DNA of 43,664 bases from sequence record LR597645, one strand, 5' to 3'. The DNA comes from Escherichia phage Fraca. The position numbers were made by a program, and so were the translations under genes. The first letter of the stretch is position 1; the number at the start of each line of letters is the position of its first letter. Below, piece by piece: positions 4,587 through 43,523 of this stretch. The notes beneath the pieces were generated by a model. The model did no database searches and was not told where the DNA came from. It saw nothing but the letters and a program-made list of their open reading frames with translations.

Positions 4587-5807
4587 ATGTCTGAAGTAAA
4601 CGAAATTCTGAAAAAAGTCACTGCCAGCATTGAAGAGGCAACCGGCAAATTCAACGCGAAAGCAGAAGACGCACTCAAAGAGGCGCAGAAGTCAGGCAGG
4701 CTGTCAGAAGAAACAAAAGCTGCCGTTGATAAAATGGCTTCTGAGTTCAATGCGCTGCGTGAAGCTGAAAAAACCCTGAAGGCCGCAATGGGCGAACTGG
4801 AGCAACATGTTGCCCAGATGCCGCTGGCCAACGCTGCAAAGGTGATCGAGACCGTTGGCCAGACCGTCATCAGCAGCGAAGCACTGAAAGCATTCGCGGC
4901 AAGCGTGGAAGGCGGTAAGCGCGTCAGCGTACCGGTGAACGCCGCGCTTATTTCCACGGATGTCGTCACCGGCGTGGTTGAACCGCAGCGTCTGCCGGGT
5001 ATCGACACCGCACCGAAACAGCGCCTTTTCATCCGCGATCTGATCGCGCCTGGCCGCACCTCAGCACCGGCCATCTTCTGGGTGCAGCAAACCGGCTTCA
5101 CCAATGCGGCGAAAGTTGTGCCGGAAGGCACCGCCAAGCCGTACAGCGATATCCAGTTCGCCACGCAGATCACGCCGGTCACCACCATCGCGCACATGTT
5201 CAAGGCGTCCAAACAGATTCTGGATGACTTCGCGCAGCTGCAGTCCACTATCGACGCCGAGATGCGTTACGGACTGAAGTATGTGGAAGAACAGGAAATT
5301 CTCTTTGGCGACGGTACCGGTGCGCACCTGAAAGGCATCGTGCCGCAGGCCTCGGCGTACGATGCTGCGTTCGCCGTAGAACAACAGAACGGCATCGACG
5401 ATCTGCGCCTCGCAATGCTGCAGGCTCAGCTGGCACGCTTCCCGGCTTCCGGCCACGTCCTGCACTTCATCGACTGGGCGAAGATTGAACTCACCAAAGA
5501 CACGCTGGGCCGCTATATCCTGGCGAACCCAGCGGCCCTGACTGGTCCTACCCTTTGGGGCCTGCCGGTGGTAGCAACCGAAGCCGCAGCATTCCAGGGC
5601 AAGTTCCTGACCGGTGCATTCAACGCTGCGGCACAGCTGTTTGACCGTGAAGACGCCAACGTGGTGATCTCCACTGAGAACGCCGACGACTTTGAGAAAA
5701 ACATGATCTCGATTCGCTGCGAAGAGCGTCTGGCCCTGGCGGTGAAACGCCCTGAAGCGTTCATCTACGGCTCCTTCACTGCGCCTGCAGCAGGTGGCGG
5801 CGCGTAA
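4587..5807 (+). CDS. Major capsid protein (HK97-like fold)
   Basis: 406 aa following the protease; AAGGA RBS; N-terminal coiled-coil delta-like region typical of HK97-type capsid precursors. Confidence 0.8.
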   Translation: MSEVNEILKKVTASIEEATGKFNAKAEDALKEAQKSGRLSEETKAAVDKMASEFNALREAEKTLKAAMGELEQHVAQMPLANAAKVIETVGQTVISSEALKAFAASVEGGKRVSVPVNAALISTDVVTGVVEPQRLPGIDTAPKQRLFIRDLIAPGRTSAPAIFWVQQTGFTNAAKVVPEGTAKPYSDIQFATQITPVTTIAHMFKASKQILDDFAQLQSTIDAEMRYGLKYVEEQEILFGDGTGAHLKGIVPQASAYDAAFAVEQQNGIDDLRLAMLQAQLARFPASGHVLHFIDWAKIELTKDTLGRYILANPAALTGPTLWGLPVVATEAAAFQGKFLTGAFNAAAQLFDREDANVVISTENADDFEKNMISIRCEERLALAVKRPEAFIYGSFTAPAAGGGA

Positions 5808-7614: not shown

Positions 7615-8085
7615 ATGACCAGTAAGTATGAAGTCACGAAGGGGATGACATTTGCCGTCTCCGACGCACCCGTAACCGCTGATGATTTTAATTCACCAAC
7701 TTTCCCGGGGGCTGGCATTACCTGGCTGGAAGCGGCCTGTGCAACGAAGGAGATCACCTTCACCGGCGGCCAGAAAGGGGATATCGACGTCACCACGCTT
7801 TGTTCAACCGAACAGGAGCAAACCAATGGCCTTGCCGCGCCTGCTGAAATGAGCATTACCCGTAACTGGGTTGGCGATGAAGCAGCACAGGAGGCACTGC
7901 AGACCGCTTACGAAAATGACGAACTGCGCGCGCTGCGCGTGGTATTCCCGTCTGGCAACGGTTTCTACGTGCTGGTGGAGGTACGCCAGAGCTCATGGTC
8001 TGCTGCAACCTCTTCCGTTGTTGGCGCAACCTATTCTCTGCGTGTACGCGGCAAACCTAAACGCATCTACGCGTCTGGTTCCTGA
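7615..8085 (+). CDS. Major tail tube protein
   Basis: 156 aa; position between tail terminator and G/T chaperone; flanked by intrinsic terminators as for highly expressed tail tube genes. Confidence 0.8.
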   Translation: MTSKYEVTKGMTFAVSDAPVTADDFNSPTFPGAGITWLEAACATKEITFTGGQKGDIDVTTLCSTEQEQTNGLAAPAEMSITRNWVGDEAAQEALQTAYENDELRALRVVFPSGNGFYVLVEVRQSSWSAATSSVVGATYSLRVRGKPKRIYASGS

Positions 8086-14717: not shown

Positions 14718-14723
14718 TGGAGA

Positions 14724-15329: not shown

Positions 15330-15347
15330 AGAACAAACCTTTTTACA

Positions 15348-15371
15348 AGCCACCCCCGGGTGGCTTTTTTT
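15348..15371 (+). terminator. Intrinsic terminator upstream of J, near-identical to the 14693 element
   Basis: AGCCACCCCCGGGTGGCT hairpin followed by a T7 tract, then ATG at 15383. Confidence 0.7.
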
Positions 15372-15382
15372 ATGGGCGCGAT

Positions 15383-19131: not shown

Positions 19132-19805
19132 TGTCTGACTTTGGCGCAATGATATTAATGGAGAACGGCAATCCCTTTGTTACACCACAATCAACGCCTT
19201 TCTGCCTCTACGGAAAATACTCCTTCAATTCCTCAGCTAATGGCAGCTCTCAGCAGGTGGCGCAATATCTTTCGGTTCCTGACGATTATCCGGTAATGGT
19301 CTTCATAAAAACGACTAATACTGCGCAGCCGACTCCGGCCATGTCATATCGGATAGGAGGAAATGTCTATATTAGTGGCGTAAATCCCTATAACCAGGGC
19401 TTTACGCTGACAGCATATGTATTTGCAATTTTTCCGCAAACACTTCCCGCGTGGGGATTTGCTATCTGGGATGCCTCCGGGAAGCTTGTTCTGACGAACG
19501 AATCAAGGGTGCTTTCTGATCTTCAAACAGTGGGCACGCCAGGTGCAAGCGGCGGGATTAATATTGACCAGACGCTGAGCGGGTCATGGGCTGTTGCGCC
19601 TGCACAGCTTGGGCAGACCATCGTTGTGAATAACTCCACCCAGCCTCCGACCATCTACACCATCAATGCTTATTCGGCTTGCAGGTTTGACGGGACTAAT
19701 ACGAGGATAAATGCAGGGGGAACCTCCACCGGAACAGGTTCTCCGGGAGGTGGAACGAATACTGGCATTTCCTTGACCGCGATAAATACAGCGGCCTATG
19801 ACTGA
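19131..19805 (+). CDS. Hypothetical tail-associated protein, paralogous to the preceding gene
   Basis: 224 aa; GTG start overlapping upstream stop with GGAGAAAG RBS; WDASGK motif; Gly/Thr-rich C-terminus. Confidence 0.55.
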   Translation: MSDFGAMILMENGNPFVTPQSTPFCLYGKYSFNSSANGSSQQVAQYLSVPDDYPVMVFIKTTNTAQPTPAMSYRIGGNVYISGVNPYNQGFTLTAYVFAIFPQTLPAWGFAIWDASGKLVLTNESRVLSDLQTVGTPGASGGINIDQTLSGSWAVAPAQLGQTIVVNNSTQPPTIYTINAYSACRFDGTNTRINAGGTSTGTGSPGGGTNTGISLTAINTAAYD

Positions 19806-19916
19806 TTGATCGTTTTGAGCGATCAATAACAAATAATTGATCTATCTAATCAATTATACCCGTTTCTTTCATGTTGGTATTGTCTAAGTTCATGAATACC
19901 TCTGGATACCATCAAT

Positions 19917-20150
19917 ATGATTAAGCTACTTATCTGCATGGCTGGCGCTGTCATGCTTTCAGGCTGCGCTGGAGTAATTGAGAAACAGGAACCAATTTGC
20001 AGCGGAACGGCCATCGTTGGCGGTCAGGAAAATACCGTCCAGATTTACGGTGTTCGTAAACAAAATAACCAGACGCAGTACCGAGCCGGTGATCCCTTTA
20101 ACTGGCGCTGGGTAGGTGCAAATACATTCACTGGCACTACCTGTAAATAA
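19917..20150 (+). CDS. Small lipoprotein
   Basis: 77 aa; signal peptide MIKLLICMAGAVMLSGC with lipobox; preceded by an AT-rich palindromic region. Confidence 0.6.
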   Translation: MIKLLICMAGAVMLSGCAGVIEKQEPICSGTAIVGGQENTVQIYGVRKQNNQTQYRAGDPFNWRWVGANTFTGTTCK

Positions 20151-20208
20151 CCCACCTCATTCGAATACAACTTCGCTCCGGCGGGGTTTTTTGTTGCCTG
20201 GAGAAAAT

Positions 20209-21528
20209 ATGCTTTATAACACTGGCACCATTGCTATCAACGGAAATACCGCCACCGGGACGGGTACAAACTGGACGGCACCCGCCAGCCAGGTTCGCGC
20301 TGGCCAGACGATTATCGTCATGTCGAGCCCGGTACAAATTTTCCAGATCTCAAGCGTGGACAGTTCCACCTCAATGACGGTTACACCTGCCGCCGCTCCG
20401 GCACTTAGTGGCCAGAAGTATGGAATCCTGGTGTCCGACAATATCTCTGTCGACGGACTGGCACAGGCCATGTCGCAACTCATCAAAGAGTATGACGAGA
20501 ATATTGGCGCGTGGGAGACGTTCGCCACAACCTCAGCCAATCAGAGCATCACTGTAACCATCAACGGCACCTCCGTAACCATCCCTGGCATCGGTAAGCT
20601 GGCACAGAAAGGGAGCAACGGCGCGCTAGCTGTCGAAGACGGCGGAACCGGGGCAACCACGGCAGAAGGCAGTCGCACAAACCTCGGTTTGGGAAACAGC
20701 GCCACCAGGAGTGTTGGGACGGTAACTGGTACCGTAGCTGCTGGCGATGATTCTCGCATCACTGGTGCCCTTCAAAAAACTGGCGGGACACTAACAGGTC
20801 AGCTGAATTTGAAAAGCGCGCCAATCGCTGCCGATGCTAACTCTGTTATTTCTGCCAACGGTGGGCTTGATGTTGATCTTTCTAAGGGGTTCGTTTTAAA
20901 AGGAAAGGTGCAGAAGGGGGCAGGTAGGGACAATAATATACTTACAATCTCGGGTGATGGAGATACGCCAACAACAGGATATGTAGGCGCGTTTCAGTAT
21001 AACTGGTATGCCGATGGCTGGATTGCAGGTATCACGCGTGGATCAGGAACAAACACAATTGCGTATTCGATTTACTATAACGGTGCATCATATGGCACTG
21101 GGTCAAAGTTTTGGAGCTTTAATTATGATGGCTCAGCCACTTCTCAGGGCGCCTGGGTTAATGGTTCTGACGAGCGCCACAAGTCGAATATTGAGGCTGT
21201 AGCCAAGCCTCTTCCCGCAGTACTCGCTATGCGTGGCGTGACTTACGATATTAAGGATGGCGGACGAGGCGTTGGCCTTATAGCCCAGGATGTTGAAAAG
21301 TGGTGTCCGGATGCTGTCAAATCATATGGAGACCGCAAGTTTAGCGACGGTGCGGTGATTGAGAATTTTAAATTTCTTGATACATCAGGCGTGGCTGCCG
21401 CCTACCATACTGAAGCAATCAAAGAACTCTTCAATCTGGTGGAACTGGCGCTTAACGATCCGGACAAGGCTCGTGATATTATTAAAGCGGTGAAAGCTGC
21501 CTCAGAGCTTAGCCAGTCAGGTTCGTGA
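20209..21528 (+). CDS. Tail fibre protein with C-terminal intramolecular chaperone (peptidase S74-like) domain
   Basis: ATG at 20209 with GGAGAAAA RBS; C-terminal SDERHKSNI motif characteristic of self-cleaving chaperone domains; the track start at 20116 lies inside a terminator-like region. Confidence 0.75.
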   Translation: MLYNTGTIAINGNTATGTGTNWTAPASQVRAGQTIIVMSSPVQIFQISSVDSSTSMTVTPAAAPALSGQKYGILVSDNISVDGLAQAMSQLIKEYDENIGAWETFATTSANQSITVTINGTSVTIPGIGKLAQKGSNGALAVEDGGTGATTAEGSRTNLGLGNSATRSVGTVTGTVAAGDDSRITGALQKTGGTLTGQLNLKSAPIAADANSVISANGGLDVDLSKGFVLKGKVQKGAGRDNNILTISGDGDTPTTGYVGAFQYNWYADGWIAGITRGSGTNTIAYSIYYNGASYGTGSKFWSFNYDGSATSQGAWVNGSDERHKSNIEAVAKPLPAVLAMRGVTYDIKDGGRGVGLIAQDVEKWCPDAVKSYGDRKFSDGAVIENFKFLDTSGVAAAYHTEAIKELFNLVELALNDPDKARDIIKAVKAASELSQSGS

Positions 21529-21558
21529 ATGATATAGCCAGGCGGCGGGCAAGGAAAC

Positions 21559-21590
21559 CGCCTCCCGTCGTATGCAAAAACGGGAGGCGG
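21559..21590. terminator. Bidirectional terminator between the tail fibre and DinI-like genes
   Basis: Perfect 10-bp stem CCGCCTCCCG / CGGGAGGCGG with 12-nt loop. Confidence 0.7.
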
Positions 21591-21646
21591 CAGGTTGCTT
21601 AGTGTTCATGTCCGAGCAAACGTGGGGAAAATTACACGATAGATAG

Positions 21647-21913
21647 TTAAAGCCCAACCTGGCGAACTGTCGGGAACTCAGAAACAAGCCACATATCTGC
21701 TTCTTCAAACATTTCCTCCAGCATGCGGTTCAGTTTTTCCCGATCGCTTTTGCTGGCATCGCTATTTAAGGCGTTTGCCTGCATCGGCTTCACCTTCACT
21801 TCGGCATCAGGGAAAATCTGGTGCACCCGCTTCGTCAGCTCGGCCAGTATGATCTCTCTGGCCCCTTCGAGCCCCTCAACATTACGCTTGTCATAAATCA
21901 GTTCTACGAACAT
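21647..21913 (-). CDS. dinI: DinI-like protein
   Basis: About 88 aa from ATG at 21913; C-terminal EEMFEEADMWLVSEF resembles the DinI signature ETWESADDWFVSE. Confidence 0.7.
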   Translation of the reverse strand: MFVELIYDKRNVEGLEGAREIILAELTKRVHQIFPDAEVKVKPMQANALNSDASKSDREKLNRMLEEMFEEADMWLVSEFPTVRQVGL

Positions 21914-21989
21914 ACGTGCTCCGCTAACTACTGTTTTAATATACAGTATTTTTGCTTTGGCAGTTTTGTCTGTCAAGGCATCAACCATT

Positions 21990-24219: not shown

Positions 24220-24963
24220 TTAACCCTCCCACCCAATCGCCTGGAACAGGCCCATTTTAGGGTGATACCAGCGGGTGCCGCGCGGTTCAGCTTCTGACAT
24301 CATCTGGCGAAACGCGGCCATAAACGGCTCCAGTTCGACGATAGCCCTACGTGACAAAAGCCCGTCTGGAGTCATAAATTCGTGCGTGTCTGTCGGGATG
24401 CGGTAGGCATTGACCAAATTCCGGCACTTGGCGTCACTCATTCCGCTTTTGGCTACCACCTGGCGGTAACCGACATATCCGGCGCGCATGGTCCCGCGTT
24501 TGATGTTCTCCACAGCTTCAGTGACCGTTTCGATCTGCTCTTCAACATGATTCAGGCGCTTCTGCTGGCGAACGGCATCGGCGGCCATTGCGGCGATCAT
24601 CTCGATTTCCGTCAGCGGCGCGCGAGTGCGGAAATAGCTGTTAACCAGCTCACGCTGAACCTGCCAGGCCAGATCGTCCGTGAGTGACTTCGCCACCATC
24701 AGATATCCAGATTCGAAAAGCACAATTCCAGAGGGCGCAAACTTAGAAAACACACCTTCTGGAAGGTCCCGGCGTATAACGTCGGAACCTAATTCAACGT
24801 AATCGACCCCCTCGACAAAGTAGTTCCTGTTTTCACGAAAATTACGTCCTGCTGTTCCATCTGGTCGTTGGTGAGCTTCGTCAATCATTGCGAATGTCAC
24901 AACGCGCTGACCGCGATATTCGACTGCCGGCAGCTGTTTGTTATTGATCGTTACTGTGTTCAT
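24220..24963 (-). CDS. ORF6N-domain-like protein (antirepressor-related family)
   Basis: 247 aa; N-terminal region resembles ORF6N-type phage proteins; family assignment from memory only. Confidence 0.5.
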   Translation of the reverse strand: MNTVTINNKQLPAVEYRGQRVVTFAMIDEAHQRPDGTAGRNFRENRNYFVEGVDYVELGSDVIRRDLPEGVFSKFAPSGIVLFESGYLMVAKSLTDDLAWQVQRELVNSYFRTRAPLTEIEMIAAMAADAVRQQKRLNHVEEQIETVTEAVENIKRGTMRAGYVGYRQVVAKSGMSDAKCRNLVNAYRIPTDTHEFMTPDGLLSRRAIVELEPFMAAFRQMMSEAEPRGTRWYHPKMGLFQAIGWEG

Positions 24964-25008: not shown

Positions 25009-25836
25009 TCACTTAACCTGGATAAATGGAGTATTGGCGCCGCTGGTCATGTACTGGGGCAGAGTGCCGTTCCATTTGTTGATGGCCTCCAGTTGAAGCA
25101 CTTCAGGGTTTTCGCGCATGGCCTGCCCACGAATCTGGATAGACTTCGCTTCCGCTTCCGCCAGCTTCAACTTTGCGTCTGCCTGGCCATCTGCTTCAGC
25201 GCGCAGCATGTTTGCTTCGGCTTCACGCTGTTTCACTTCTTGCTCGCGCTGCAGGGTCTTCTGGTTGGCGGTGACTTTGGCGTTGATGCTGTCGATAACA
25301 GTCGGCGGGTACTCCGGACGGCCGACGTAAGAAAGGCTGATAACCTGGATTCCTACCGGACCCATGTCGGACTGAATCTCTTTCAGAGCATTTTCAAGCA
25401 GTTCAGCTTTCCCGCCGTCAATGAACTTATCGGTGCTCATGCGGCTTGCGAGACGATTAAGGGCATCGGCAATCTTTTGGCGCAAATCGGTGTCGGTGAT
25501 GTCGTCCACGCCTTTCCGATAGGTCTGAAACACCGTCGTCACTTTGGTCGGATCAACTTTATAGGCGACGCCGATGTGATAGCCGATGGTTGTGCCGTCA
25601 CTCATCTGGAAGTTGAAAGCGTCGTCGTAGGTTTTCATCTGTTTGAAGGTCGGGAAGATGTAAACCTCTGTGTTCCAGCCAGTCCAATAGCGGCCAACGC
25701 CTACCACTTCGCCAACGCCTTTATCGTCACCCAGCTTGTTGACCTTAATCCCAACGTTGCCAGGCTCAACACGATCACAACCAACGAGACCGACGGCAGA
25801 AAGCGCGATAATTGAAGCCATAATTGCTTTTTTCAT
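25009..25836 (-). CDS. SPFH (band 7 / prohibitin-like) domain lipoprotein
   Basis: 275 aa; signal peptide with lipobox LVGC; SPFH-like core and C-terminal Ala/Glu-rich coiled coil; start overlaps upstream stop (ATGA). Confidence 0.7.
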   Translation of the reverse strand: MKKAIMASIIALSAVGLVGCDRVEPGNVGIKVNKLGDDKGVGEVVGVGRYWTGWNTEVYIFPTFKQMKTYDDAFNFQMSDGTTIGYHIGVAYKVDPTKVTTVFQTYRKGVDDITDTDLRQKIADALNRLASRMSTDKFIDGGKAELLENALKEIQSDMGPVGIQVISLSYVGRPEYPPTVIDSINAKVTANQKTLQREQEVKQREAEANMLRAEADGQADAKLKLAEAEAKSIQIRGQAMRENPEVLQLEAINKWNGTLPQYMTSGANTPFIQVK

Positions 25837-32669: not shown

Positions 32670-32981
32670 ATGGATCGCCTAATTAGAGAAATGTCGTATC
32701 TCTTTACCAAGCAGCGTTTTATGGAGCTTCAGGAAACGGCAAAAGACATCGCAATCGGTCATAGTGATTTTCCTGAGTGTTTCGGTCTTATTGCTGACGC
32801 CATCGCTGAATTTGTTGAAGACACTCCTGATGATGAGTGGCGAGAGCATGAAAAAATCCTTATGCACTACGTTGCTATGCGTGTTCTGACGCTGTGGGGT
32901 AACGGCGATAAAGTGACTGATGTCCAGTGGGCACACCCTGGCTGGTTTGGCACTGCTGAAAAGGGGGAAACCATTCAATGA
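32670..32981 (+). CDS. Hypothetical protein
   Basis: 103 aa; ATG at 32670 two nt after the primase-helicase stop; overlaps the next start. Confidence 0.5.
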   Translation: MDRLIREMSYLFTKQRFMELQETAKDIAIGHSDFPECFGLIADAIAEFVEDTPDDEWREHEKILMHYVAMRVLTLWGNGDKVTDVQWAHPGWFGTAEKGETIQ

Positions 32982-33760
32982 AGTTGGAAGCATCACTAAA
33001 ACACTTTAGCCCTCAGGGTGTGCACATCAGCGACGACGTGAAAGGAACCTCTCCGGATCGTCTCACCGGCACTGATGTAATGGCGGCAATTGGCACCACC
33101 AGCAGCCGTGCGCGCTTCGGACTGGCGGCGTTCTTCGGTAAAGCGGGAATCAGCAAAACGGATGAACAGCTCGCAGTTCAGGCGCTGGCGCGATATGCGA
33201 TGGATGTCGCACCGAAGAATGTTCGCAAAGCAGCTGGTGGGCAGTTCGGATGGTGCATGCAGATGCTGGCACAATTTGCCTTTGCTGATTACTCCCGTTC
33301 AGCGGCTACCAGCGTGACGTGTCACAGCTGCAGTGGTACCGGGTTTATCTTCGGTAATGAGGATGTGGTTAAACATCCTGGTATTTTCGATGCAGACGGT
33401 GCCGAAGTGGTGGCTCCGAAGATAAAAAATGAGCTGGTGAAAAGGGTTTGCGGAACATGCGGAGGAAAGAAAGTGATCCTTGCCCGGTGCAGGTGCGGCG
33501 GTAAAGGCGAAGTGTTGGACCGCAAAGCGACTAAAGACAGCGGCGCACCGGTTTTCAAAACGTGTGAACGTTGCTCTGGTAATGGCTTCTCTGCTATCTC
33601 CTCGGCGACGGTACACCGTGCCATTCTGAAGCGTCTCCCTGACCTCCATCAGTCCTCATGGTCACGCAACTGGAAACCCTTTTATGAAATGCTGGTGGAC
33701 ACTCTGCGCCAGGGGGAGCGTCATGCAGCAGTGGAATTTGAGAAGGCGACAACTTATTAA
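32978..33760 (+). CDS. Putative late antiterminator Q-like protein with DnaJ-type zinc finger repeats
   Basis: 260 aa with four CxxCxGxG motifs; sits between replication genes and the late promoter/lysis region. Confidence 0.5.
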   Translation: MKLEASLKHFSPQGVHISDDVKGTSPDRLTGTDVMAAIGTTSSRARFGLAAFFGKAGISKTDEQLAVQALARYAMDVAPKNVRKAAGGQFGWCMQMLAQFAFADYSRSAATSVTCHSCSGTGFIFGNEDVVKHPGIFDADGAEVVAPKIKNELVKRVCGTCGGKKVILARCRCGGKGEVLDRKATKDSGAPVFKTCERCSGNGFSAISSATVHRAILKRLPDLHQSSWSRNWKPFYEMLVDTLRQGERHAAVEFEKATTY

Positions 33761-33802
33761 TATGATCGGAACAAATGGCGACACTTTTTTGCACGTTAGT
33801 GT

Positions 33803-33840
33803 TGACTTTGCATAAAACTGTCCTGTATGCTTCTGATTAT
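33803..33840 (+). promoter_or_regulatory. Candidate late promoter (PR'-like)
   Basis: TTGACT at 33803-33808, then 17-18 nt spacer and weak -10 (TATGCT); followed about 40 nt later by a terminator. Confidence 0.35.
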
Positions 33841-33876
33841 GGAGTATAGCGCCTGTAGATAATTAACCTCTAAAAG

Positions 33877-33903
33877 CCCGCCACGTTGCGGGTTTTTTTA
33901 TTT
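33877..33903 (+). terminator. Intrinsic terminator (tR'-like) in the late leader
   Basis: CCCGCCACGTTGCGGG hairpin followed by an 11-nt T-rich tract. Confidence 0.7.
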
Positions 33904-34195
33904 CCAGCAAGGTTTTTCTTCATTGCGTTTGTTATGTTGTGTTTTTTAACTGAGGGTCAGTTGATGAGCGCAGATGAAAACTTGTTGAGTAAAATTCAGG
34001 AAGTACGGACGGTAGAGGATGTGGAGCAAGTCAATTTGGGCCTTTCTAAAGGCTGGGTGATTTTGATGATCACCGAGAGCTCTACAGTCTGGGAAGATGG
34101 CAGCAAAAGCAGCCTTGTTACATATCACATGGGCAAGCCGAAGGCATTGCCGGTCTGATCAAGCCTTACCAAATCAAAAATTTCAATCATATATA

Positions 34196-34219
34196 GGCCA
34201 CCTCACGGTGGCCTTTTTT
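34196..34219 (+). terminator. Intrinsic terminator
   Basis: GGCCACCTCACGGTGGCC hairpin followed by a T6 tract. Confidence 0.7.
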
Positions 34220-34436
34220 GTTTCCCCTCGTTCTGAGAGGACTCATGGCAATGATGCATTGACCGTAGGAATGAATTCGGCGTAACTTATTTATGTGGTG
34301 AATTCTTTCTAAGCGAAAGGGCGTTCCAGTCAACTGCTATTTGCAGGTATGCGCGCGTCTTTGCTAACTGGGGCAGAGACACCGGGAGGCACCCGGCACC
34401 ATGACAACAACAATACAATTTTGAAATTCCTTGAGA

Positions 34437-34464
34437 GCCTGCCATAAAACGCAGGCCTTTTTTT
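34437..34464 (+). terminator. Intrinsic terminator
   Basis: GCCTGCCATAAAACGCAGGC hairpin followed by a T7 tract. Confidence 0.6.
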
Positions 34465-34613
34465 ATGGTTTTGTTAACTGCTGCTACGCTTTGAGTTGTG
34501 GGAAGTTCCTGAATGCCCGGTGGTTCTCCTGAACCTGGCGTGAATCAGCCGATACAGCTTCATCCGGGATGCAAGATCAACTCACACCTACCTCACAAAT
34601 AGTCAACTCATTG

Positions 34614-34641
34614 GCCCGCTTCATAAGAGCGGGCTTTTTTT
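34614..34641 (+). terminator. Intrinsic terminator upstream of the holin
   Basis: GCCCGCTTCATAAGAGCGGGC hairpin followed by a T7 tract. Confidence 0.7.
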
Positions 34642-34682: not shown

Positions 34683-34985
34683 ATGAAAATGAATGATTCA
34701 GGGAACATTTTCACGCAGTTCTTCGCGTGGGTAGCGGCTCTGGCGTCTGCAATCGGATTTACCACTCAGGATCTGGTGTTCATGTTCTTTGGCGCGGCTG
34801 GTCTGCTTTTATCCCTCGCCTCCTACGTGAACGGGCGTGTGGATGCCCGCCGAAAGCGCAGGGAAGACGAAAAGCGCACCCAGATGGTTAATGACTACCT
34901 GAAAGGTGTAGGTGATAAGCCTCTCCATGAACGGCCAGCAGCGGCAAGTGTAGTTGTTGAGGCCTTACAAAAGGAAAGTGAGTAA
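34683..34985 (+). CDS. Holin (class II, pinholin-like)
   Basis: 100 aa with two TM segments and a charged C-terminus; MKM dual-start-like N-terminus; immediately precedes the SAR endolysin. Confidence 0.65.
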   Translation: MKMNDSGNIFTQFFAWVAALASAIGFTTQDLVFMFFGAAGLLLSLASYVNGRVDARRKRREDEKRTQMVNDYLKGVGDKPLHERPAAASVVVEALQKESE

Positions 34986-35521
34986 TGGGAACCAGGGCAA
35001 AGTTAAGCGCGGCAGTTCTGGGGCTCGTCCTCGCTGGAGCTCCGGCTTCAGTTATCCTCGATAAGTTTCTGGATGAGAAGGAGGGCAACAGCCTGACGGC
35101 CTATAAAGATGGCTCCGGGATCTGGACTATTTGTCGTGGTGCCACAATGGTTGACGGTAAGCCAGTTGTGCAGGGCATGAAGTTAACGCAAGCCAAATGC
35201 GACAAGGTTAATGCCATCGAACGGGATAAGGCTCTGGCGTGGGTTGACCGCAATATCAAAGTTCCTCTGACCGAACCGCAGAAAGCCGGAATCGCATCTT
35301 TCTGCCCGTACAACATAGGCCGAGGCAAATGCTTCCCATCGACGTTCTATAAGCGTCTTAATGCAGGCGACCGCAAAGGGGCCTGCGAGGCTATCCGATG
35401 GTGGATAAAAGATGGAGGCCGTGACTGCCGACTGACAAAGGGTCAGAAGAATGGGTGCTACGGGCAGGTTGAACGCCGTGACCAGGAAAGTGCACTTGCC
35501 TGCTGGGAGATAGAAAAGTGA
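34985..35521 (+). CDS. SAR endolysin (lysozyme, GH24-like)
   Basis: 178 aa; N-terminal Gly/Ala-rich weakly hydrophobic signal-anchor segment; lysozyme-like [20 protein letters not shown]. Confidence 0.75.
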
Positions 35522-36063
35522 ATCCGTCTCCGTTAATTGCAGCAATAAAAGCCTGGTGGAAGCCGTTTTTAGTATTGATTGTTGTGGTCGCCGCGTTTAT
35601 CGCTGGCAATGTCTGGAGTAACCGGGCATGGGAAAAAAAGTGGGCAGACCGTGATAGTGCCGAGTCCTCGCAACAAGTCAACGCGCAGACCGCCGCCAGA
35701 ATGATAGAGCAAGGGCGAATTATTGCCCGTGATGAGGCCGTTAAAGATGCTCAAGAGAAAGCAGCTGCCGCGCGTGATGTTTCTGCCCGTTTGGCTGGCA
35801 CTGTTAGTCAGCTGCAGCAACAGGCAAGAAAACTCGCCACCCGCCTGGACGCCGCAAAGCACACCGCAGATCTTGCCGCTGCCGTCAGAGGCAAAACAGC
35901 CGGAGCCAACGCCACAATGCTCGCCGACATGCTCGGAGGTCTTGCAGCAGAAGCTAAATATTATGCTGAACGATCTGACGAAAGCTATCGAGCAGGAATG
36001 ACCTGTCAGCGTATTTATGACTCGGTGAGAGAGTCAAACAACCAATCTGGAGCCTCGCAATAG
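35518..36063 (+). CDS. Rz-like i-spanin
   Basis: 181 aa; N-terminal TM segment then Ala/Gln-rich coiled coil; GTG start overlapping the endolysin stop. Confidence 0.7.
35777..36001 (+). CDS. Rz1-like o-spanin lipoprotein embedded in the +1 frame of Rz
   Basis: ATG at 35777 encodes [14 protein letters not shown] (lipobox) followed by a Pro-rich sequence, wholly inside the Rz gene. Confidence 0.65.
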
Positions 36064-36381: not shown

Positions 36382-36609
36382 ATGTTAACAGTAAAAGTAA
36401 TGTCGCCTGGCGGCGGCGAAGAGATTCATTGTGGTCTGAGTGTGGGTTTCAATCCGGCGCAGCAGAGTATCGCCGTGTCCGGTATGGACAAAAATGTTTT
36501 CCTGAAACCCGGTGAGGTTGCCTACGTGATGAACCAGAACGGGAAGACGGTATCTCGTTACGAGCATATCGCGCGTCAGGAAGTGCTGCATAATGCGGTG
36601 GAATCGTAG
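36382..36609 (+). CDS. Hypothetical protein
   Basis: 75 aa; GGAGAAG RBS. Confidence 0.5.
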   Translation: MLTVKVMSPGGGEEIHCGLSVGFNPAQQSIAVSGMDKNVFLKPGEVAYVMNQNGKTVSRYEHIARQEVLHNAVES

Positions 36610-36699
36610 CCATTACAAAGCTCACCTGCTGGTGGGCTTGATAATGGTTATCCCAACGAGCGGATAAGACAATCAACATACCCACCAGAGGATTAGAGC

Positions 36700-36894
36700 A
36701 TGGCAAGCATGCCAATGTCCGTTCATCACGAAGGGAAAGACTGGTACCCGTTCTCTGTTAACTTTTCCGATGCAGATGGGCGTTCTTTCTCCTTCACTAT
36801 ATACGCCGTAAACCGTGAGCATGCCTCCTATATTGTCCAGGAGATACGCGAGACGGCTACTCTCGGCGATCAGATTGACAGCATCGTCAAATAG
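36700..36894 (+). CDS. Hypothetical protein
   Basis: 64 aa ORF. Confidence 0.4.
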   Translation: MASMPMSVHHEGKDWYPFSVNFSDADGRSFSFTIYAVNREHASYIVQEIRETATLGDQIDSIVK

Positions 36895-37015
36895 CCAACC
36901 TTGAGCGCATCGCACGCGCACATCAAAGAAAGTCTTTCAGCTGTGAGCCTGGGCAAACCGTTAACTTTAGGCGGCTTTGCCGTGCGACAGGCTCACGCCT
37001 AAAAGGAAACACCAA

Positions 37016-37858
37016 ATGAAACATTTACCACTTAAAGCCGTTATGACAGGGCTGGAAATCATCGAAACTGATGAAGGTTGTGAGCTGCACAGTCCAGCTG
37101 GCGAGGCGAAATACGATGCATGGGGTGCCCGCCGTGAAGTGAACGGCATACCGGAATACTTCCCGTTATCGATTTCAATGAAAAAGCGTGTACCTGCTGC
37201 AACAGACGTTAAAAAGGCTGAGAACATTACTTTATCCGGCGCTGCGACGGATGTTCTGTATTCGCTGTTCTTTCGTGGTGCATTGCAATGCGCTGAGCTG
37301 CCATCTAAATCTGGTGCTGCTGAGCTTCGCGAACTGGGGTTCGCGGTAACCCGATATACAGCGACGGAATATCTGAAGGAAAGTTATTTCACCTTCCTGA
37401 CCGCTGAAGGGCAGGAATTTGCCATTAAGCACCTGGCAGATACGCGCTTTGGTAAGCCGGTTGATAAACAGTATCGCGGCGCAATCACTATTGGCGTTGA
37501 GCTGGACACCTCAGACGTACAAAAAGCTATTGATGAGATGGACGAAAAAATCCGTAACAGCGAGGCATTCAAGATCCTTAAAGATGGCTGGAAGCATGAA
37601 AAAAACGGAACGATGATTATTAATAAAGGCCAGGTGTTCATTCGCGATGAGAAGAGTGCAGTAACCGTTCGCGTCGGTAAATTTGGTATTCATAGCGGCG
37701 TCGATATAAACCTTGATGAAATCATAAAAAACGCCCTAGCTTCTGATGCCGCTATTCAGCAAATCAGAAAGGATATTGCAACGGTTGTGGAAGATGAGAT
37801 TGCCAAAAAGCTTAAGCCCGGTGGCACAATATGGGATTGCTTACGACGTGGATTCTGA
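37016..37858 (+). CDS. Hypothetical protein upstream of the glycosyltransferase
   Basis: 280 aa from ATG at 37016; AAGGAAA RBS; no recognisable motif. Confidence 0.55.
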   Translation: MKHLPLKAVMTGLEIIETDEGCELHSPAGEAKYDAWGARREVNGIPEYFPLSISMKKRVPAATDVKKAENITLSGAATDVLYSLFFRGALQCAELPSKSGAAELRELGFAVTRYTATEYLKESYFTFLTAEGQEFAIKHLADTRFGKPVDKQYRGAITIGVELDTSDVQKAIDEMDEKIRNSEAFKILKDGWKHEKNGTMIINKGQVFIRDEKSAVTVRVGKFGIHSGVDINLDEIIKNALASDAAIQQIRKDIATVVEDEIAKKLKPGGTIWDCLRRGF

Positions 37859-37869
37859 CGGGAGGTTTT

Positions 37870-39327
37870 ATGCAGGTCACTATTGATGGTGTCCCGTTTG
37901 TTCCTGCGTGTGCTTCAGCGTCACGGGTTGGCATTGCCATTACTACCCACAATAGGCCAGACGTTTTAAAGCGCGCCATTGAGCAGCACATGAAACATCT
38001 GCCAGCCGGTGCGCTGGTGGTTGTTATCGATGATGGTTCCTACCCTGCAGCAGTAGTGCCTGACGGCGTGCAGCTGCTTCGCCATGAAAAATCACTCGGC
38101 ATTGTTGCCTCGAAGAACGCCAGCCTGTCAGCCCTGATGGATGCCGGGTGCGAGCATCTTTTTCTGTGGGATGATGATGCATGGCCCATCGCCGATAACT
38201 GGCACCTCCCTTACATCGAATCACCTGAGCCACACCTGGCTTACCAGTTTCTCGATCTGGCTGGCCGCAACAAGCTGAATGACCTTTCGGTGCTTTACCG
38301 TGATGATAAGCATGTTGCTTACACCGGGCAGCGTGGCGTGATGCTTTACTACCACCGCAGTGCCATTGAGAAGGTTGGAGGATTCGATCCGGTATATGGT
38401 CGCGGCATGTACGAACACAGCGACCTCGCCCTGCGCATTCATAACGCTGGATTGACTACGTGGTCTTATGCCGATGTGACTGATTCAGAAAAGCTGATTC
38501 ATTCTCTCGATGAGCATGAGGCCGTGGAGCGTTCGGTACCGAAACCAGACCGTCAGGCGCTGGTGGAACGTAACGTAAAAATCCACAACGAACGGCGTGA
38601 TACCGGGTTTACCGGTTATGTGGAGTACCGGCGGCAACGCGATGTGGTAATCACTACGCTACTGACCAGTCAGCCAGATCCGCAGCGTGGTACCAGACTG
38701 AAGCCAGAGCAGGCGCTTATTGCGAAATGGGTCGCATCTATCAAAGGCGGCGAAGCGGTAATTCTCGCTGACGAGTTTGAATATTCTCCACCGGGCCAGC
38801 TTACGGTGCGTGTGCCTGCGGTCGATATGAACGTGTATTTCCGCCGCTGGCTGCATATCTGGCAGCACCTGCGTGATCATCCTGAATACCGGTTCGTCTG
38901 GTGTACCGATGGAACCGATGTCGAAATGCTTCGCGCGCCGTGGGAAGAAATGGAAGCCGGAAAGGTGTATGTCGGTTCAGAACCAAAGACCTACGCCGAT
39001 ACCTGGGCAAAGCAGAATCATCCGGAGCGCATCTATCAGGAGTTCATTGAAGCGCACCGAAACGATGTAATGCTTAACGCTGGGCTGCTGGGTGGTACCC
39101 GCGCTGATGTGATGGCGTTCGCCCACGGAATTATTCGCCTTTACTACCGGATCGAGAGTTATCGTTTCTGGAAGAAAGAACAGGCTGGCACCGCGGTGGG
39201 GGATATGATCGCTTTTGGCATTGTCGCTAAGTCTTTTGGCGATCGCATTGTCACCGGCCCGCGCATCCACACAGTTTTTAAGACTGATGGTATTGGCAAA
39301 GAATGCGCTTGGTTTAAACACAAATAG
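37870..39327 (+). CDS. Glycosyltransferase family 2 (GT-A fold) protein with extra C-terminal domain
   Basis: ATG at 37870 with GGAGG RBS; GT2-like motifs GIAITTHNRP, VIDDGS and WDDDAW; about 250 aa C-terminal extension. Confidence 0.7.
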   Translation: MQVTIDGVPFVPACASASRVGIAITTHNRPDVLKRAIEQHMKHLPAGALVVVIDDGSYPAAVVPDGVQLLRHEKSLGIVASKNASLSALMDAGCEHLFLWDDDAWPIADNWHLPYIESPEPHLAYQFLDLAGRNKLNDLSVLYRDDKHVAYTGQRGVMLYYHRSAIEKVGGFDPVYGRGMYEHSDLALRIHNAGLTTWSYADVTDSEKLIHSLDEHEAVERSVPKPDRQALVERNVKIHNERRDTGFTGYVEYRRQRDVVITTLLTSQPDPQRGTRLKPEQALIAKWVASIKGGEAVILADEFEYSPPGQLTVRVPAVDMNVYFRRWLHIWQHLRDHPEYRFVWCTDGTDVEMLRAPWEEMEAGKVYVGSEPKTYADTWAKQNHPERIYQEFIEAHRNDVMLNAGLLGGTRADVMAFAHGIIRLYYRIESYRFWKKEQAGTAVGDMIAFGIVAKSFGDRIVTGPRIHTVFKTDGIGKECAWFKHK

Positions 39328-39333
39328 GCTGAT

Positions 39334-39843
39334 ATGAAAAAGACCAGAACTTTCAGTGAAAGATTCTGGGAAAAGGTCGTTGTTGCCTCTCCAGATGAAT
39401 GCTGGATCTGGAATGCGGCTAAGAGAAAGAGTCCTATAGGCGGTGGGAAGTATTTATTTTACGGGCATTTGAAAGCTGGAGTTACTGCTGGCGGGCCTGG
39501 AAAGATGATTCTTGCACACAGAGCTTCATGGGAACTTTGCAACGGACCTATCCCAGACGGATATTTGATTGACCATACCTGCCATAACACTCTTTGCGTC
39601 AACCCAAAACATCTTCGAATAGCAACACCAAAACAAAACGCTGAAAACAGGCATCGTCACTCCTCTGCGTCAGGATTTCGTGGCGTTACTTGGAATCGGG
39701 ATATGAAGAAATGGTGTGCTCACTATAAAGAGCATGGTACCCGTCATCACCTTGGTTACTTTGACTGTAAGCATGAAGCCGCTGAGGTTGCACGACGAGC
39801 CCGTAATAAGGTGTTTACCCATAATGATGCTGACAGATATTAA
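39334..39843 (+). CDS. HNH endonuclease with AP2-like DNA-binding domain
   Basis: 169 aa; HNH-like region around IDHTCHNTLCVNPKHLRIATPKQN; AP2-like FRGVTWNRDMKKWCAHYKEHGTRHHLGYF. Confidence 0.7.
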   Translation: MKKTRTFSERFWEKVVVASPDECWIWNAAKRKSPIGGGKYLFYGHLKAGVTAGGPGKMILAHRASWELCNGPIPDGYLIDHTCHNTLCVNPKHLRIATPKQNAENRHRHSSASGFRGVTWNRDMKKWCAHYKEHGTRHHLGYFDCKHEAAEVARRARNKVFTHNDADRY

Positions 39844-40414
39844 GTTTGTGGTGGTCGGTCATGTCTCTCGCATAGGTCATGCACAACGTCTTGCTGCGCT
39901 GCTGGATGCTCATCTGCTTATTGATGACGGTAACCACGGTGCGAACTGGAATCACCGCCGCGCGCTTGAGTGGGCAGCAGAACAAACCTGCCGGGTAGTT
40001 GTTGTTGAAGATGATGCGATGCCAGTGGACTTGTTCTTCACTTCAGTCACGAGCTGGCTTAACCGCTTCCCGGAATCTCTGGTGAGTTTTTACCTGGGCA
40101 CTGGCCGACCACCACAGTATCAGATGCAGGTAGCCGAACGTCTGATAGTTGCTGATAAGACTCAGGCTGACTACATCACACTGCCGCGGCTGATACACGG
40201 CGTTTGTTATAGCGTACCTTCTCAGCATATTGAACGAGTCCTTTCTCGATGGGACAGCAGCAAGCCCGCCGATTACGCTGTGGGTGATGCCTGGGGCGGT
40301 TCAGTGGTCTATCCGTGTTACTCGCTGGTGGATCATGCTGATGGTGAGCCTGTTGAGCGTCACCCTGATTCAGCGCAACGAACAGAACGCCGTCGAGCGT
40401 GGAGGTTAGCCTGA
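39824..40414 (+). CDS. Hypothetical protein, possibly nucleotide-sugar transferase-like (start uncertain)
   Basis: ATG at 39824 or 39827; VVVGHV...LLIDDG and VVVVEDDAMP resemble a GT-A-like Rossmann core. Confidence 0.4.
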   Translation: MMLTDIKFVVVGHVSRIGHAQRLAALLDAHLLIDDGNHGANWNHRRALEWAAEQTCRVVVVEDDAMPVDLFFTSVTSWLNRFPESLVSFYLGTGRPPQYQMQVAERLIVADKTQADYITLPRLIHGVCYSVPSQHIERVLSRWDSSKPADYAVGDAWGGSVVYPCYSLVDHADGEPVERHPDSAQRTERRRAWRLA

Positions 40415-40770
40415 TGCCTGCGTTAATACCGAGAGCATGCCGCAAGCGTGGCTGTCCTGGCACAACCACAGACCGCTCAGGCTATTGCCCCAAACACCTT
40501 AACGAAGGCTGGCAGCAGCATCAGCGGGGACAGAGCAGGCATCAGCGCGGTTATGGCAGTAAGTGGGACAGGCTGCGCCCAATCGTTCTCGACAGAGATA
40601 AACACCTTTGTCAGGAATGCCTGCGAAATGGAAGGTATACACCCGCTGAGACGGTGGACCACATAAAGCCGAAAGCTCACGGTGGCACTGACGATCTTTC
40701 TAATCTGGAATCAATTTGCCGCGGCTGCCATAAAGCTAAGACAGCACGCGAGCGCCTGAACAGAAATTAA
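40414..40770 (+). CDS. HNH endonuclease (HK97 gp74-like)
   Basis: ATG at 40414 with GGAGG RBS; Cys pairs and HIKPKAHGG...CRGCH HNH motif. Confidence 0.7.
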   Translation: MPALIPRACRKRGCPGTTTDRSGYCPKHLNEGWQQHQRGQSRHQRGYGSKWDRLRPIVLDRDKHLCQECLRNGRYTPAETVDHIKPKAHGGTDDLSNLESICRGCHKAKTARERLNRN

Positions 40771-40964
40771 GGGGTATTCGGAAAAGAGTGTGTACAGATC
40801 TTAGGTGTAGGTATAGAATCTAGTTGTTGCGATTCGGATTATAGTGAGTATCAGCAACATGAAAAAGGGCCGGGTGGCCGCTACCAACGAACCCACCCAG
40901 CCCAGCCAGTGGAACGAGTTAACCACTGGCTATGTGATTAGACCAAAAACGAGGAGAGTTGAGA

Positions 40965-41231
40965 ATGAATAGCCATCTAAAAGTTGAGCTTAACGCCACC
41001 AAGTTAGTTATCTCTATAGGCAAAGAAACTCTGTTACATGCTATTGAAACAGGTCGGTCTTATGGCCTTGGTGACATCAAAATCACAGACAAAGAGCTGT
41101 TTCTTGAAGAGGTTGTTCGTGAGCTCAACGCTGAGAGTGAGGATGGATCCACCCTAATACATGAGGCACTTGACCAAGCGGTTAGTAACGCACTTGATAA
41201 TGGCGCTGATGGCGTTGAATACGATGATTAA
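40965..41231 (+). CDS. Hypothetical acidic protein
   Basis: ATG at 40965 with GAGGAGAG RBS. Confidence 0.45.
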   Translation: MNSHLKVELNATKLVISIGKETLLHAIETGRSYGLGDIKITDKELFLEEVVRELNAESEDGSTLIHEALDQAVSNALDNGADGVEYDD

Positions 41232-41246
41232 TAGGGGGGAGGCGTG

Positions 41247-41465
41247 ATGATTACGTTAAGCGGTAAAGACTTGATGGAGCTACTTGATTACATCAGCCCA
41301 GACCGAGAGAGCGACCCTGAGCAGCTGGAGACTGAGGTAAGCGTCATCAAGATGGACAAGACGTTTGCCTCTAGCGAGGGGGATATCAGGCCGGCAGGTG
41401 TGTACGCATATCTGACAGAGTACCCTGAAGAAGGGCTTTATGGCCCGATTGGATCAGTTGAATAA
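41247..41465 (+). CDS. Hypothetical acidic protein
   Basis: ATG at 41247 with GGGGGAGG RBS. Confidence 0.45.
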   Translation: MITLSGKDLMELLDYISPDRESDPEQLETEVSVIKMDKTFASSEGDIRPAGVYAYLTEYPEEGLYGPIGSVE

Positions 41466-41477
41466 GCCGGGGGAACG

Positions 41478-42791
41478 TTGCTCAACCTACCAAATGTTGT
41501 GATTACCGGCAGGGATGAGGATGAGGAGAGTTACCTCATCCATGCCGAATCAGAAGCCACAGTCAGGTTGTGCCCTGGCTGTGGCTCTTTCAATTCCGTG
41601 GTGATCGGGAGCCGTAATCAGCCGTTCGTAGACACGCAGATGCATGCCAAGACGGTGCGGATCCTATTCACCCGCAAGCGCCTTAAGTGCAAGGACTGCG
41701 GAAAGACCTACTTTGAGCTGCTTGAGTGGCTACATGAGGACTTCCGCATGCCAACCCGCACCGTTGACTACATCATCAAGCGAGCGGCCAGAGTGCCGTT
41801 CCTGAGCGTAGCCAGCGAGCTGGGCGTTGATGAGAAGACCGTGCGCAACGTGTTCGCCAACTATGTGGAGTTCATCGAGAGCAAACACGACTGGCAGGCT
41901 CCGAGGGTACTCGGGATCGATGAAACACATTTCAGCCAAAAGATGCATCTAGTCCTGACGGATATCGAGCGAAAGACCCTGCTCGACCTCCGGCGAGACC
42001 GCTCTCAAGAGGCAGCCAAAAGCGCCATCGTTCGCCTTCGTGGATGGGCGGGCATTGAGATTGTCTGCATGGATATGTGGCGACCGTACAGGAACGCAGT
42101 GCGTGACATCCTGCCCAATGCAGTGGTTGTCATCGACAGGTTCCACGTTGCCAGGATGGCGAACGAGGCAATGGAGGCGGCCCGCAAGGGCCTGCGAGCA
42201 TCACTATCGAAGAAGGAGCGGATCAGGTTGAAGGATGACCGCAAGATACTGCTCAAGCGCCGAGACAACATCACCGGACTGAATGAGCTCGCCAGCTTCC
42301 ATTTCTGGACTGAGGAATATCCAGAGCTGATGTCTGTCTATAACGCCAAAGAGGCGTTCCTAGACCTGTGGCTCATGCCTACCAGGGACGATGCAATGGA
42401 GTATTGGGAGAACTGGCTGCGTATCACTGACAGCGAAACCAAGAAGCATTTCTCCCAGGCGGTCACGGCAATGAGGAACTGGCATGAGGAGATCTTCAAC
42501 TGGTGGGACTTCCGGTACACGAACGCGCTGACTGAAAGCCTGAACAACCTGATCAAGGCAGCTTTCAGATCTGGTCGTGGTTACAGTTTTGAGGTGCTCA
42601 GGGCCAAGCTGTTGTTCACGAAAGGGGGTCTTGAGACCACCGCAGAATCTCTCAACAAGCCGAGACCAGAACCCACTGAGATGATCCTGATCGAGGAGCC
42701 TGAGCTGTTTCTCCATGGCACCAGAATTGACATGCCAGTGCTTGCTTTTGATCTGGTTGCGGATCATACAGATACACACAACCAGAGTTGA
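41478..42791 (+). mobile_element. ISL3-family transposase gene (IS element or remnant; element ends not identified)
   Basis: 437 aa; N-terminal zinc ribbon CPGCGS...CKDCGK; DDE region with GIDETHF and VVVIDRFHV; TTG or GTG start. Confidence 0.7.
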
Positions 42792-42799
42792 TCTGATAA

Positions 42800-42833
42800 G
42801 AGCATTGATTTGATTGATATTTAATCAATGCTC
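42800..42833. repeat. Perfect 11-bp inverted repeat hairpin just after the transposase gene
   Basis: GAGCATTGATT-N12-AATCAATGCTC. Confidence 0.8.
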
Positions 42834-42872
42834 ACTCTAATCCGCATACCCAAATTAAGTAACGAGGTGAAG

Positions 42873-43523
42873 ATGACTGAATCGAAACATGGTTCAGGGC
42901 TTCCGCACGCCCATGCTGCCTGCATTGTGGATGGATGCGAATTATCGGTACGATCCCGTAACAGCCACTACTGTGAAAAGCATTACATGCGCGTCCGGCG
43001 TCATGGAACGACAGAGAAGCTCAGCACAAGAAAGGATGGCAAGCTGGAGCACACTGGCGGATATCTGCTGGTGTATGCGCCCGATCATCCTTTGGCATGT
43101 GGGAGTCCTCGTGTTTACGAGCACCGGAAAGTCTATTACGACAAACATGGGGCTGGACCGTTCCGTTGTCACTGGTGTGCAAAAACCGTTGGCTGGGACA
43201 CCCTTCACATCGACCACCTCGATGACTGTAAGACCAATAACGAGCCTGACAATCTTGTGCCAAGTTGCCCTGTGTGCAATCAGAAGCGAGGCGTAGACAA
43301 GATGAGAAAGACAATGCGAGAGAACTCCGACCGCAGATATACCGCTCACGGCAAGACGATGTGTCTTAACGAATGGGCGGATTACCTGGGTATTTCGAGA
43401 AACTCCATTGAGTATCGACTGAAGGCAGGCTGGGACATCAGTAAGGTGTTCAGCCCTCGCATTGGTAACAGTGGTCCCCCGAGCCGGAAACTGGCGAAAA
43501 TCGTGCATGAGTCGGTTAAATGA
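42873..43523 (+). CDS. HNH endonuclease adjacent to the terminase
   Basis: ATG at 42873 with GAGGTGA RBS; HNH motif CHWCAKTVGWDTLHIDHLDD...CPVCNQKRG. Confidence 0.7.
   Translation: MTESKHGSGLPHAHAACIVDGCELSVRSRNSHYCEKHYMRVRRHGTTEKLSTRKDGKLEHTGGYLLVYAPDHPLACGSPRVYEHRKVYYDKHGAGPFRCHWCAKTVGWDTLHIDHLDDCKTNNEPDNLVPSCPVCNQKRGVDKMRKTMRENSDRRYTAHGKTMCLNEWADYLGISRNSIEYRLKAGWDISKVFSPRIGNSGPPSRKLAKIVHESVK

Follow-up and report, generated by a model that had tools for sequence, protein, structure and literature searches.

The genome of Escherichia phage Fraca (sequence record LR597645), whose 43,664 nucleotides (nt; 43.7 kb) form the window analysed here and represent a complete HK97-like temperate phage genome, carries near its right end two glycosyltransferase (GT) genes, one for a tandem enzyme of 485 amino acids (aa), GT485, and one for a small GT25-like enzyme of 196 aa, GT196. 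Considering the observed homology, folds, motifs, gene position and association with a C-terminal Gly-Ser ending on virion proteins, we think it probable that the two genes form a virion-protein glycosylation system, split by an HNH-AP2 endonuclease gene and acting on the C-terminal Gly-Ser tag. On sequence comparison, the best reading of the GT485 and GT196 module is a putative new Gram-negative instance of the mycobacteriophage-type virion glycosylation system; literature searches returned no report of such a system for enterobacterial phages. An earlier note on this DNA had described the module as uncharacterised, which does not wholly hold given its homology to mycobacteriophage virion-glycosylation genes, and had left virion proteins, phage DNA and a host target as possible substrates. 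Virion proteins are now favoured, DNA being disfavoured by the missing hydroxylated-base pathway and a host target by the retention of the enzyme pair across unrelated envelopes.

Two glycosyltransferases with mycobacteriophage relatives

37870..39327, plus strand: GT485, tandem GT-A glycosyltransferase, 485 aa
GT485 residues ~18-250: N-domain, GT2/Glyco_transf_7C-like, with D54 D55, D101-D103 and E182 H183
GT485 residues ~255-485: C-domain, with DPQR, D347xTD350, G369xE371, N403xG405..GG409, DM and a terminal HK
39824..40414, plus strand: GT196, small GT25-like glycosyltransferase, 196 aa, with EDDA at 62-65 and SLVDHAD at 167-173

Both enzymes were compared by tblastn with 50,697 phage genomes. 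GT485 matched 568 Mycobacterium phage records and GT196 matched 662, next to about 30 enteric ones. GT485 aligned over its full length with Fruitloop gp99 at 44% identity (E=1.7e-139), and GT196 displayed 34% identity to Che8 gp110 (E=1.6e-24) and to Fruitloop gp102. In both Che8 and Fruitloop the homologous genes are the last at the right end, before an HNH gene, cos and terminase, an arrangement which is the same in Fraca, and in Gordonia phage Phendrix a GT pair (gp79/gp80) lies within the structural operon. Passages on Che8 in the published work describe its virions as O-glycosylated on capsid and tail tube by phage glycosyltransferases and its glycans as an antibody shield (Freeman et al. 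2023, as cited in PMC11256854, PMC11600133, PMC10877033, PMC13445384). Fraca thus shares with the Cluster F set (Fruitloop gp99 and gp102; Che8 gp108-110) the homologous enzymes, the right-end position and the Gly-Ser ends on major virion proteins. It differs in its host, a Gram-negative enterobacterium, in the HNH-AP2 endonuclease gene that stands where Fruitloop has a kinase gene between its GT genes, and in the distribution of the tag, which is found on capsid and tail in Che8 and Fruitloop and on the tail tube only in Fraca, whose capsid is untagged. The best protein matches to the genes of this region are found in prophages of Enterobacter hormaechei and E. kobei.

The larger enzyme had been drawn as a 498-aa open reading frame (ORF; 37831-39327). 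The frame stands, whereas its start should almost certainly be moved to the ATG at 37870 because a GGGAGG ribosome-binding site lies 5 nt upstream and because of the homologue lengths, about 100 of the 120 closest cluster representatives having 485 aa and the remainder 486 aa. The GT2 motifs, previously called clear, are borne out by the homologues and the model but not by the Pfam GT2 match of GT485 itself, which at 20.4 bits (E=5e-4) does not reach the cut-off of 23.3; when 60 homologues were examined with Pfam, GT2 was detected in 57 and Glyco_transf_7C in 40. Relatives number 1610 in 1.8 billion representative proteins (261 at E<=1e-30), and nearly all of them display the same two-part layout of 450-490 aa. 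In a 41-member alignment (29-54% identical), R29, D55, D101, D103 and H183 of the N-half are invariant and D54, D102 and E182 near-invariant, and in the C-half D270-P-Q-R, D347-x-T-D350, G369-x-E371, N403-x-G405..G408-G409, D445-M446 and a terminal H-K are invariant or nearly so.

The AlphaFold2 model of GT485, built from 60 diverse sequences, has a GT-A fold with a mean predicted local distance difference test (pLDDT) score of 92.4, and its N-domain shows a Rossmann-like GT-A fold with a DxD metal/nucleotide-sugar site. Foldseek aligned the model end to end with Pasteurella heparosan synthase 2, E. coli K4 chondroitin polymerase and human COLGALT1 (486-548 columns, E ~1e-10 to 1e-7), all of them two-domain GT-A proteins. 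COLGALT1 is a protein O-glycosyltransferase of the GT25 family, the one matched by relatives of GT196. These tandem enzymes differ from GT485 in that identity is as low as 11-13%, there is no sign that GT485 polymerises, and its C-domain has conserved motifs of its own. One-domain-sized alignments (~255-290 columns, the matching domain not being reported) were obtained to the retaining GT6 alpha-3-GalT and ABO transferases, and a fold search of BFVD returned generic viral GT-A matches only. At the sequence level the C-domain had no match in PDB, profile search included, or in Pfam. We read GT485 as a putatively bifunctional enzyme with two catalytic GT-A domains, its large extra C-terminal region being taken as the second of these; that second activity is suggested by the modelled fold and the motifs only. 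Being GT2/GT7-like, the N-domain probably inverts; the C-domain is probably GT6/GT8-like and retaining.

The small enzyme was assigned to phrog_854 (E=9e-75). Two of ten members of its family match Pfam Glyco_transf_25 (PF01755; E=1.2e-7), presumably mycobacteriophage Che8 gp110 and Fruitloop gp102, and in the family alignment EDDA is invariant and SLVDHAD is kept. When the GT196 family was compared with GT485 by hhalign, the DxD strand alone was aligned. Neither the individual proteins nor a profile of the GT196 family gave anything useful in sequence searches of the PDB, and NCBIfam added nothing.

The C-terminal Gly-Ser ending of virion proteins

7615..8085, plus strand: major tail-tube protein (Pfam tail-tube families), ending in KRIYASGS; predicted glycan acceptor
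4587..5807, plus strand: major capsid protein, ending in APAAGGGA, no Gly-Ser tag; predicted unglycosylated
20116..21528, plus strand: tail fibre with a C-terminal S74 chaperone domain, ending in SQSGS

The tail tube and the S74 tail fibre are the only ORFs of at least 80 aa in the window that end in Gly-Ser (GS). The fibre is a possible second acceptor; its ending may equally be a coincidence, because the S74 chaperone domain is normally cleaved off. The Fraca capsid is 98.8% identical to that of mEp235, a phage that lacks the glycosyltransferases (GT-negative), and the genome is a mosaic in which the head genes (1-6700) resemble those of mEp235 and the tail genes (6736-21900) those of the GT-positive phages mEp390, LMessi and HK542. 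This mosaic accounts for the presence of the Gly-Ser end on the tail tube and its absence from the capsid. A frameshift artefact was considered for the capsid GGGA end and rejected, dozens of GT-negative relatives sharing it.

The same ending recurs where related enzymes are found. In Che8, whose glycans are reportedly located at the C-termini of the virion subunits, and in Fruitloop, the capsid ends in NKTGS and the major tail protein in YSDGS; in GT-positive enteric phages the tail tubes end in ASGS, AAGS, ESGS, EPGS or DPGS and the capsids in FSSGS or STGAGS. In Phendrix four consecutive virion proteins, the capsid, gp75, the major tail protein and the head-tail adaptor (gp74-gp77), end in GS. 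The genes for these four (36572-40388 of the retrieved stretch) lie directly upstream of the GT pair gp79/gp80, and a second 'major tail protein', gp82, does not have the ending.

The association was quantified with counts that include related sequences. In IMG/VR, all loci with a tail tube of the window type and a full 10 kb of upstream sequence (more than 50) carry GT196, as do 45 of 52 loci whose HK97-type tail tube is short and has the GS end. Of 62 GS-ended capsids of the HK97 type, 60 belong to GT-positive loci, and one that ends in FSAD is GT-negative. The cleanest control is the family of the Fraca capsid (at least 89% identity), in which all five GS-ended members are GT-positive and none of 49 GT-negative members ends in GS, their ends being GGGA, PAGA or similar (Fisher p=5.5e-6 for GS end against GT196, ignoring kinship); two GT-positive members are exceptions, one of them arranged like Fraca, with a GGGA capsid and a GS tail tube. 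Finally, the GT196 family profile was run against one genome for each bacterial species and gave 62 loci in Proteobacteria and Actinobacteria (Enterobacterales, Pseudomonas, Rhizobiaceae, Luteimonas, Methylophilaceae, Nocardia, Microbacterium, Glycomyces and others). There the commonest C-terminal dipeptide is GS, present in 86 of 1596 same-strand ORFs of at least 100 aa (5.4%), compared with 12 of 1236 on the opposite strand (1.0%) and 10 of 1131 in GT-negative relatives (0.9%). When nine reference proteins of Che8, Phendrix and HK97-type phages are added, the GS-ended proteins fall into 41 families unlinked by BLAST, many of capsid or tail-tube size, in which the last two residues alone are conserved and positions -3 and -4 vary. 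Statistically the association of the tag is strong, and the acceptor residue itself is a prediction from these sequences.

The tail tubes of HK97-type phages occur in two forms, one of 234 aa with a C-terminal immunoglobulin (Ig)-like domain and one of 147 aa that stops at ESGS where the Ig domain would begin:

3201-3905 of the retrieved stretch: HK97 gp12, long form
3201-3644 of the retrieved stretch: short form (compare the Fraca tail tube, 7615-8085)

The short form nearly always accompanies the GT module, and HK97, without the module, has the Ig-like domain. Because this domain is fused exactly where GT-positive tail tubes end, the comparison suggests, by analogy with tail-tube proteins of the lambda gpV type, that the tail tube has an outward-facing C-terminus, on which glycan and Ig domain may be alternative decorations.

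Proposed mechanism and alternative acceptors

33738..33831, plus strand: candidate late promoter region, directly after the Q gene
32978-33760: Q antiterminator gene

The candidate late promoter region holds the sole plus-strand promoter-like sites upstream of the module; none was found between 33832 and 40790, nor was a flanking terminator pair found around the GT module. The module most likely shares late transcription from the Q-dependent promoter with the structural genes. The four proteins of the region (an upstream 280-aa protein, GT485, the HNH-AP2 endonuclease and GT196) have no transmembrane segment, their maximum 19-aa hydropathy being at most 1.3 compared with 2.07 for the holin used as control, and the two glycosyltransferases are accordingly soluble. 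Both findings agree with the earlier view of late-operon, cytoplasmic glycosyltransferases forming a phage modification module. That view had also held classical O-antigen conversion to be unlikely for want of a Gtr-type membrane partner, and indeed no protein of the cluster has a transmembrane segment. Like the GtrA/GtrB/GtrV cassettes, the module is a case of a GT2-like enzyme in a temperate enterobacterial phage. In contrast with these cassettes, which adjoin the integrase gene, it lies in the late operon and has neither a flippase nor a membrane-embedded transferase.

In the mechanism that we propose, the enzymes would build an O-linked glycan in the cytoplasm on the short C-terminal tag ending in Gly-Ser-COOH of major virion subunits. 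GT196, which Che8 has in common with Fraca, is the candidate priming enzyme; it would recognise the free C-terminal Gly-Ser of subunits, whether already assembled or not, and attach the first sugar to them. Extension of the glycan would then fall to the two catalytic domains of GT485, the order of action and the sugars being conjectural. Because the tail tube is tagged (ASGS) and the capsid is not, tail-only glycosylation is predicted, and in Fraca glycans would cover the tail and leave the head bare. Such a coat probably acts like the Ig-like decoration domains of relatives or as an antibody shield of the kind reported for Che8. With evenly balanced confidence we extend the proposal further, to a Gly-Ser-COOH that would serve as a portable two-residue glycosylation signal, recognised in Proteobacteria and Actinobacteria alike by phage enzymes of one GT25-like family.

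Several observations weigh against this interpretation. The glycans of Che8 virions are reported from experiment and the enterobacterial lineage is known here from genes alone. A comparison by hhalign of the GT485 family with Che8 gp108 and gp109 revealed no relationship, and therefore the small enzyme is the core shared with the experimentally studied phage. For this small enzyme, GT196 itself has no match in Pfam, and an AlphaFold2 prediction from an alignment of 87-94% identical sequences had a pLDDT of 43 and was unusable. Its fold assignment rests for that reason on the motifs and the family-level Pfam match. As for the tag, HK97 is GT-negative and yet its capsid ends in SSGS, and tail tubes ending in ASGS occur in the absence of GT196 in mEp506 and at four IMG/VR loci. 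Part of the tag association could be due to co-inheritance, GT and structural genes being physically linked.

These last points are also what favours an action on something else, for instance a non-structural protein of the phage, a small molecule or a defence signal, with the Gly-Ser ends reflecting linkage and shared ancestry. The endings are kept in GT-negative HK97 and mEp506, and the GT genes are exchanged along with the structural genes that they adjoin, the acceptor in enteric phages being a predicted one. Against this, the tag occurs on 41 BLAST-unlinked families from hosts of different phyla with the last two residues alone conserved, and a capsid family of at least 89% identity switches between GAGS and GGGA in step with the presence of the GT genes. 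We consider such an acceptor unlikely.

Modification of a host glycan (lipopolysaccharide core, O-antigen, enterobacterial common antigen or capsule) or of a host protein, for lysogenic conversion, superinfection exclusion or host takeover, appears a little less likely still. It would fit with the PHROGs label of both families ('moron, auxiliary metabolic gene and host takeover'), with the action of bacterial GT25 enzymes on lipopolysaccharide, with the morons often held in the region between lysis genes and cos of lambdoid phages, and with the polysaccharide synthases among the structural neighbours of GT485. The module nevertheless has no promoter-like site of its own, no flanking terminators and no membrane partner. 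Moreover, phages of Actinobacteria and of Proteobacteria have retained the enzyme pair, and phages of Bacteroidota have GT485 beside another small GT, although the envelopes of these hosts have no such acceptor in common; the Phendrix pair lies inside the structural operon, and the tag association would be left unexplained.

Glycosylation of phage DNA to evade restriction, as by TET-associated GT-A enzymes (TAGT), base-J glucosyltransferase (JGT) or the T4 glucosyltransferases, is very improbable: the shared GT-A fold, the R...DDD...E(D/H) layout described for DNA GT-A enzymes and present in the GT485 N-domain, the weak Pfam TAGT matches of 23 of 60 GT485 homologues (best E=1.3e-5) and the adjoining packaging genes are outweighed by TAGT matches far weaker than those to GT2 and GT7C, by the unexplained Gly-Ser association, by a lambdoid gene set (integrase, CI-like repressor, primase-helicase, Q) and by the need of known DNA glycosylation for a pre-existing hydroxyl on 5-hydroxymethylcytosine, 5-hydroxymethyluracil or 5-hydroxycytosine, given that no TET/5mYOX, C5-methyltransferase, DNA polymerase or thymidylate-synthase-like hydroxylase was detected when 20 further proteins of the window were scanned with Pfam and that the partner enzymes for hydroxylated bases are missing from the Fraca genome. 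The capsid glycosylation of Chlorovirus PBCV-1 (A64R, A111/114R, A075L) is likewise of another kind, being N-linked and directed to internal sites in a eukaryotic virus, with no C-terminal tag and no specific homology.

Returning to virion-protein glycosylation through the Gly-Ser tag, to our knowledge actinobacteriophages are the only phages whose particles have been shown to be glycosylated, with the effect of blunting antibody recognition, and our literature searches found no other case. If the proposal is true, virion glycosylation would be no peculiarity of actinobacteriophages, and glycans would coat the tails and heads of many prophage-derived particles from Enterobacterales of the gut (Enterobacter, Citrobacter, Klebsiella, Escherichia, Salmonella). 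The tag and the tail tube's Ig-like domain would then be functional alternatives in HK97-like phages. Module and tag are common in prophages of clinically important Enterobacterales, one cluster at 90% identity comprising 4,655 sequences. Glycosylated particles would bear on the immune recognition of gut and therapeutic phages, on mucus and surface binding, and on the reading of cryo-electron microscopy density and mass spectra of virions. The enzymes and tag would also offer a minimal cytoplasmic system for glycosylating arbitrary proteins in E. coli. In Fraca, the untagged capsid beside the tagged tail tube would serve as an internal negative control.

Neighbouring genes and other features of the genome

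37016..37858, plus strand: 280-aa protein (phrog_17079/16910), predicted neighbouring cargo
39334..39843, plus strand: free-standing homing endonuclease with Pfam domains HNH_3 and AP2
40399-40770: HK97 gp74-like HNH gene, adjoining the region
34683-34985: holin
34985-35521: lysozyme
35518-36063: spanin
202-675: small terminase

The gene order of the window starts with the small terminase (202-675); head, tail, integrase, repressor, replication, Q and lysis genes follow and lead up to the region studied here. All four ORFs of this region were found on the plus strand, with the lysis genes on one side and the gp74-like HNH gene on the other. They had been taken as one cluster of four, a grouping that we have reduced to the two GT genes.

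The HNH-AP2 endonuclease was correctly recognised, both domains being present in 39334-39843. The last 20 nt of its gene overlap GT196 and form a new 5' end for it. In LMessi the HNH-AP2 gene is missing and the two GT genes overlap directly, and in mEp390 a diverged HNH gene is found at the same junction; the gene is therefore a selfish homing-endonuclease insertion between GT485 and GT196, not a working part of the module. At the corresponding place between the large and small GT genes Fruitloop has a small kinase-like gene of phrog_3297 (gp100, 4216-4674 of the retrieved stretch), and so does an unrelated metagenomic phage (9460-9936 of the retrieved stretch); in enteric phages there is either nothing or an HNH gene. 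Its product may phosphorylate the glycan or a sugar.

The 280-aa protein had no match in Pfam, NCBIfam, PADLOC or PDB. Relatives of it are found at the right end of GT-negative phages, phi80, mEp043/213/237 and phiKO2 among them, whereas just 2 of 80 related GT-positive loci have its gene along with the module. On this distribution a role as module component or acceptor was rejected, and we regard the gene as unlinked cargo. A PADLOC search covering this protein, GT485, GT196 and the small neighbouring ORFs gave no defence match.

Further observations concern the rest of the window. Four strong terminator-like hairpins are packed into less than 800 bp (33872-34635, plus strand) separating the holin gene from Q and the candidate late promoter; lambda has a single tR'. 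Between the gp74-like HNH gene and the genome end with its terminase, a stretch on the plus strand (40959-43523) encodes an ISL3-family transposase (DDE_Tnp_ISL3, E=7e-57) and a second HNH protein of 231 aa:

41478-42791, plus strand: ISL3 transposase region
40959-41231, 41244-41465 and 42828-43523: flanking ORFs

Relatives such as mEp390 carry just two tiny ORFs at this position, and a search for the terminal inverted repeats of an ISL3-type element found none that was convincing. Directly after the capsid gene, an ORF of 82 aa (5849-6097, plus strand) encodes about 30 residues of perfect (EQQQ)n repeat and then a tail rich in lysine; its product may decorate or cement the head, or the ORF may be spurious. 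Around the integrase gene, minus-strand accessory genes (21647-21988, 24220-24963, 25009-25836) encode DinI-like, ORF6N-domain and SPFH/Band-7 proteins, which are candidates for morons expressed in the lysogen.

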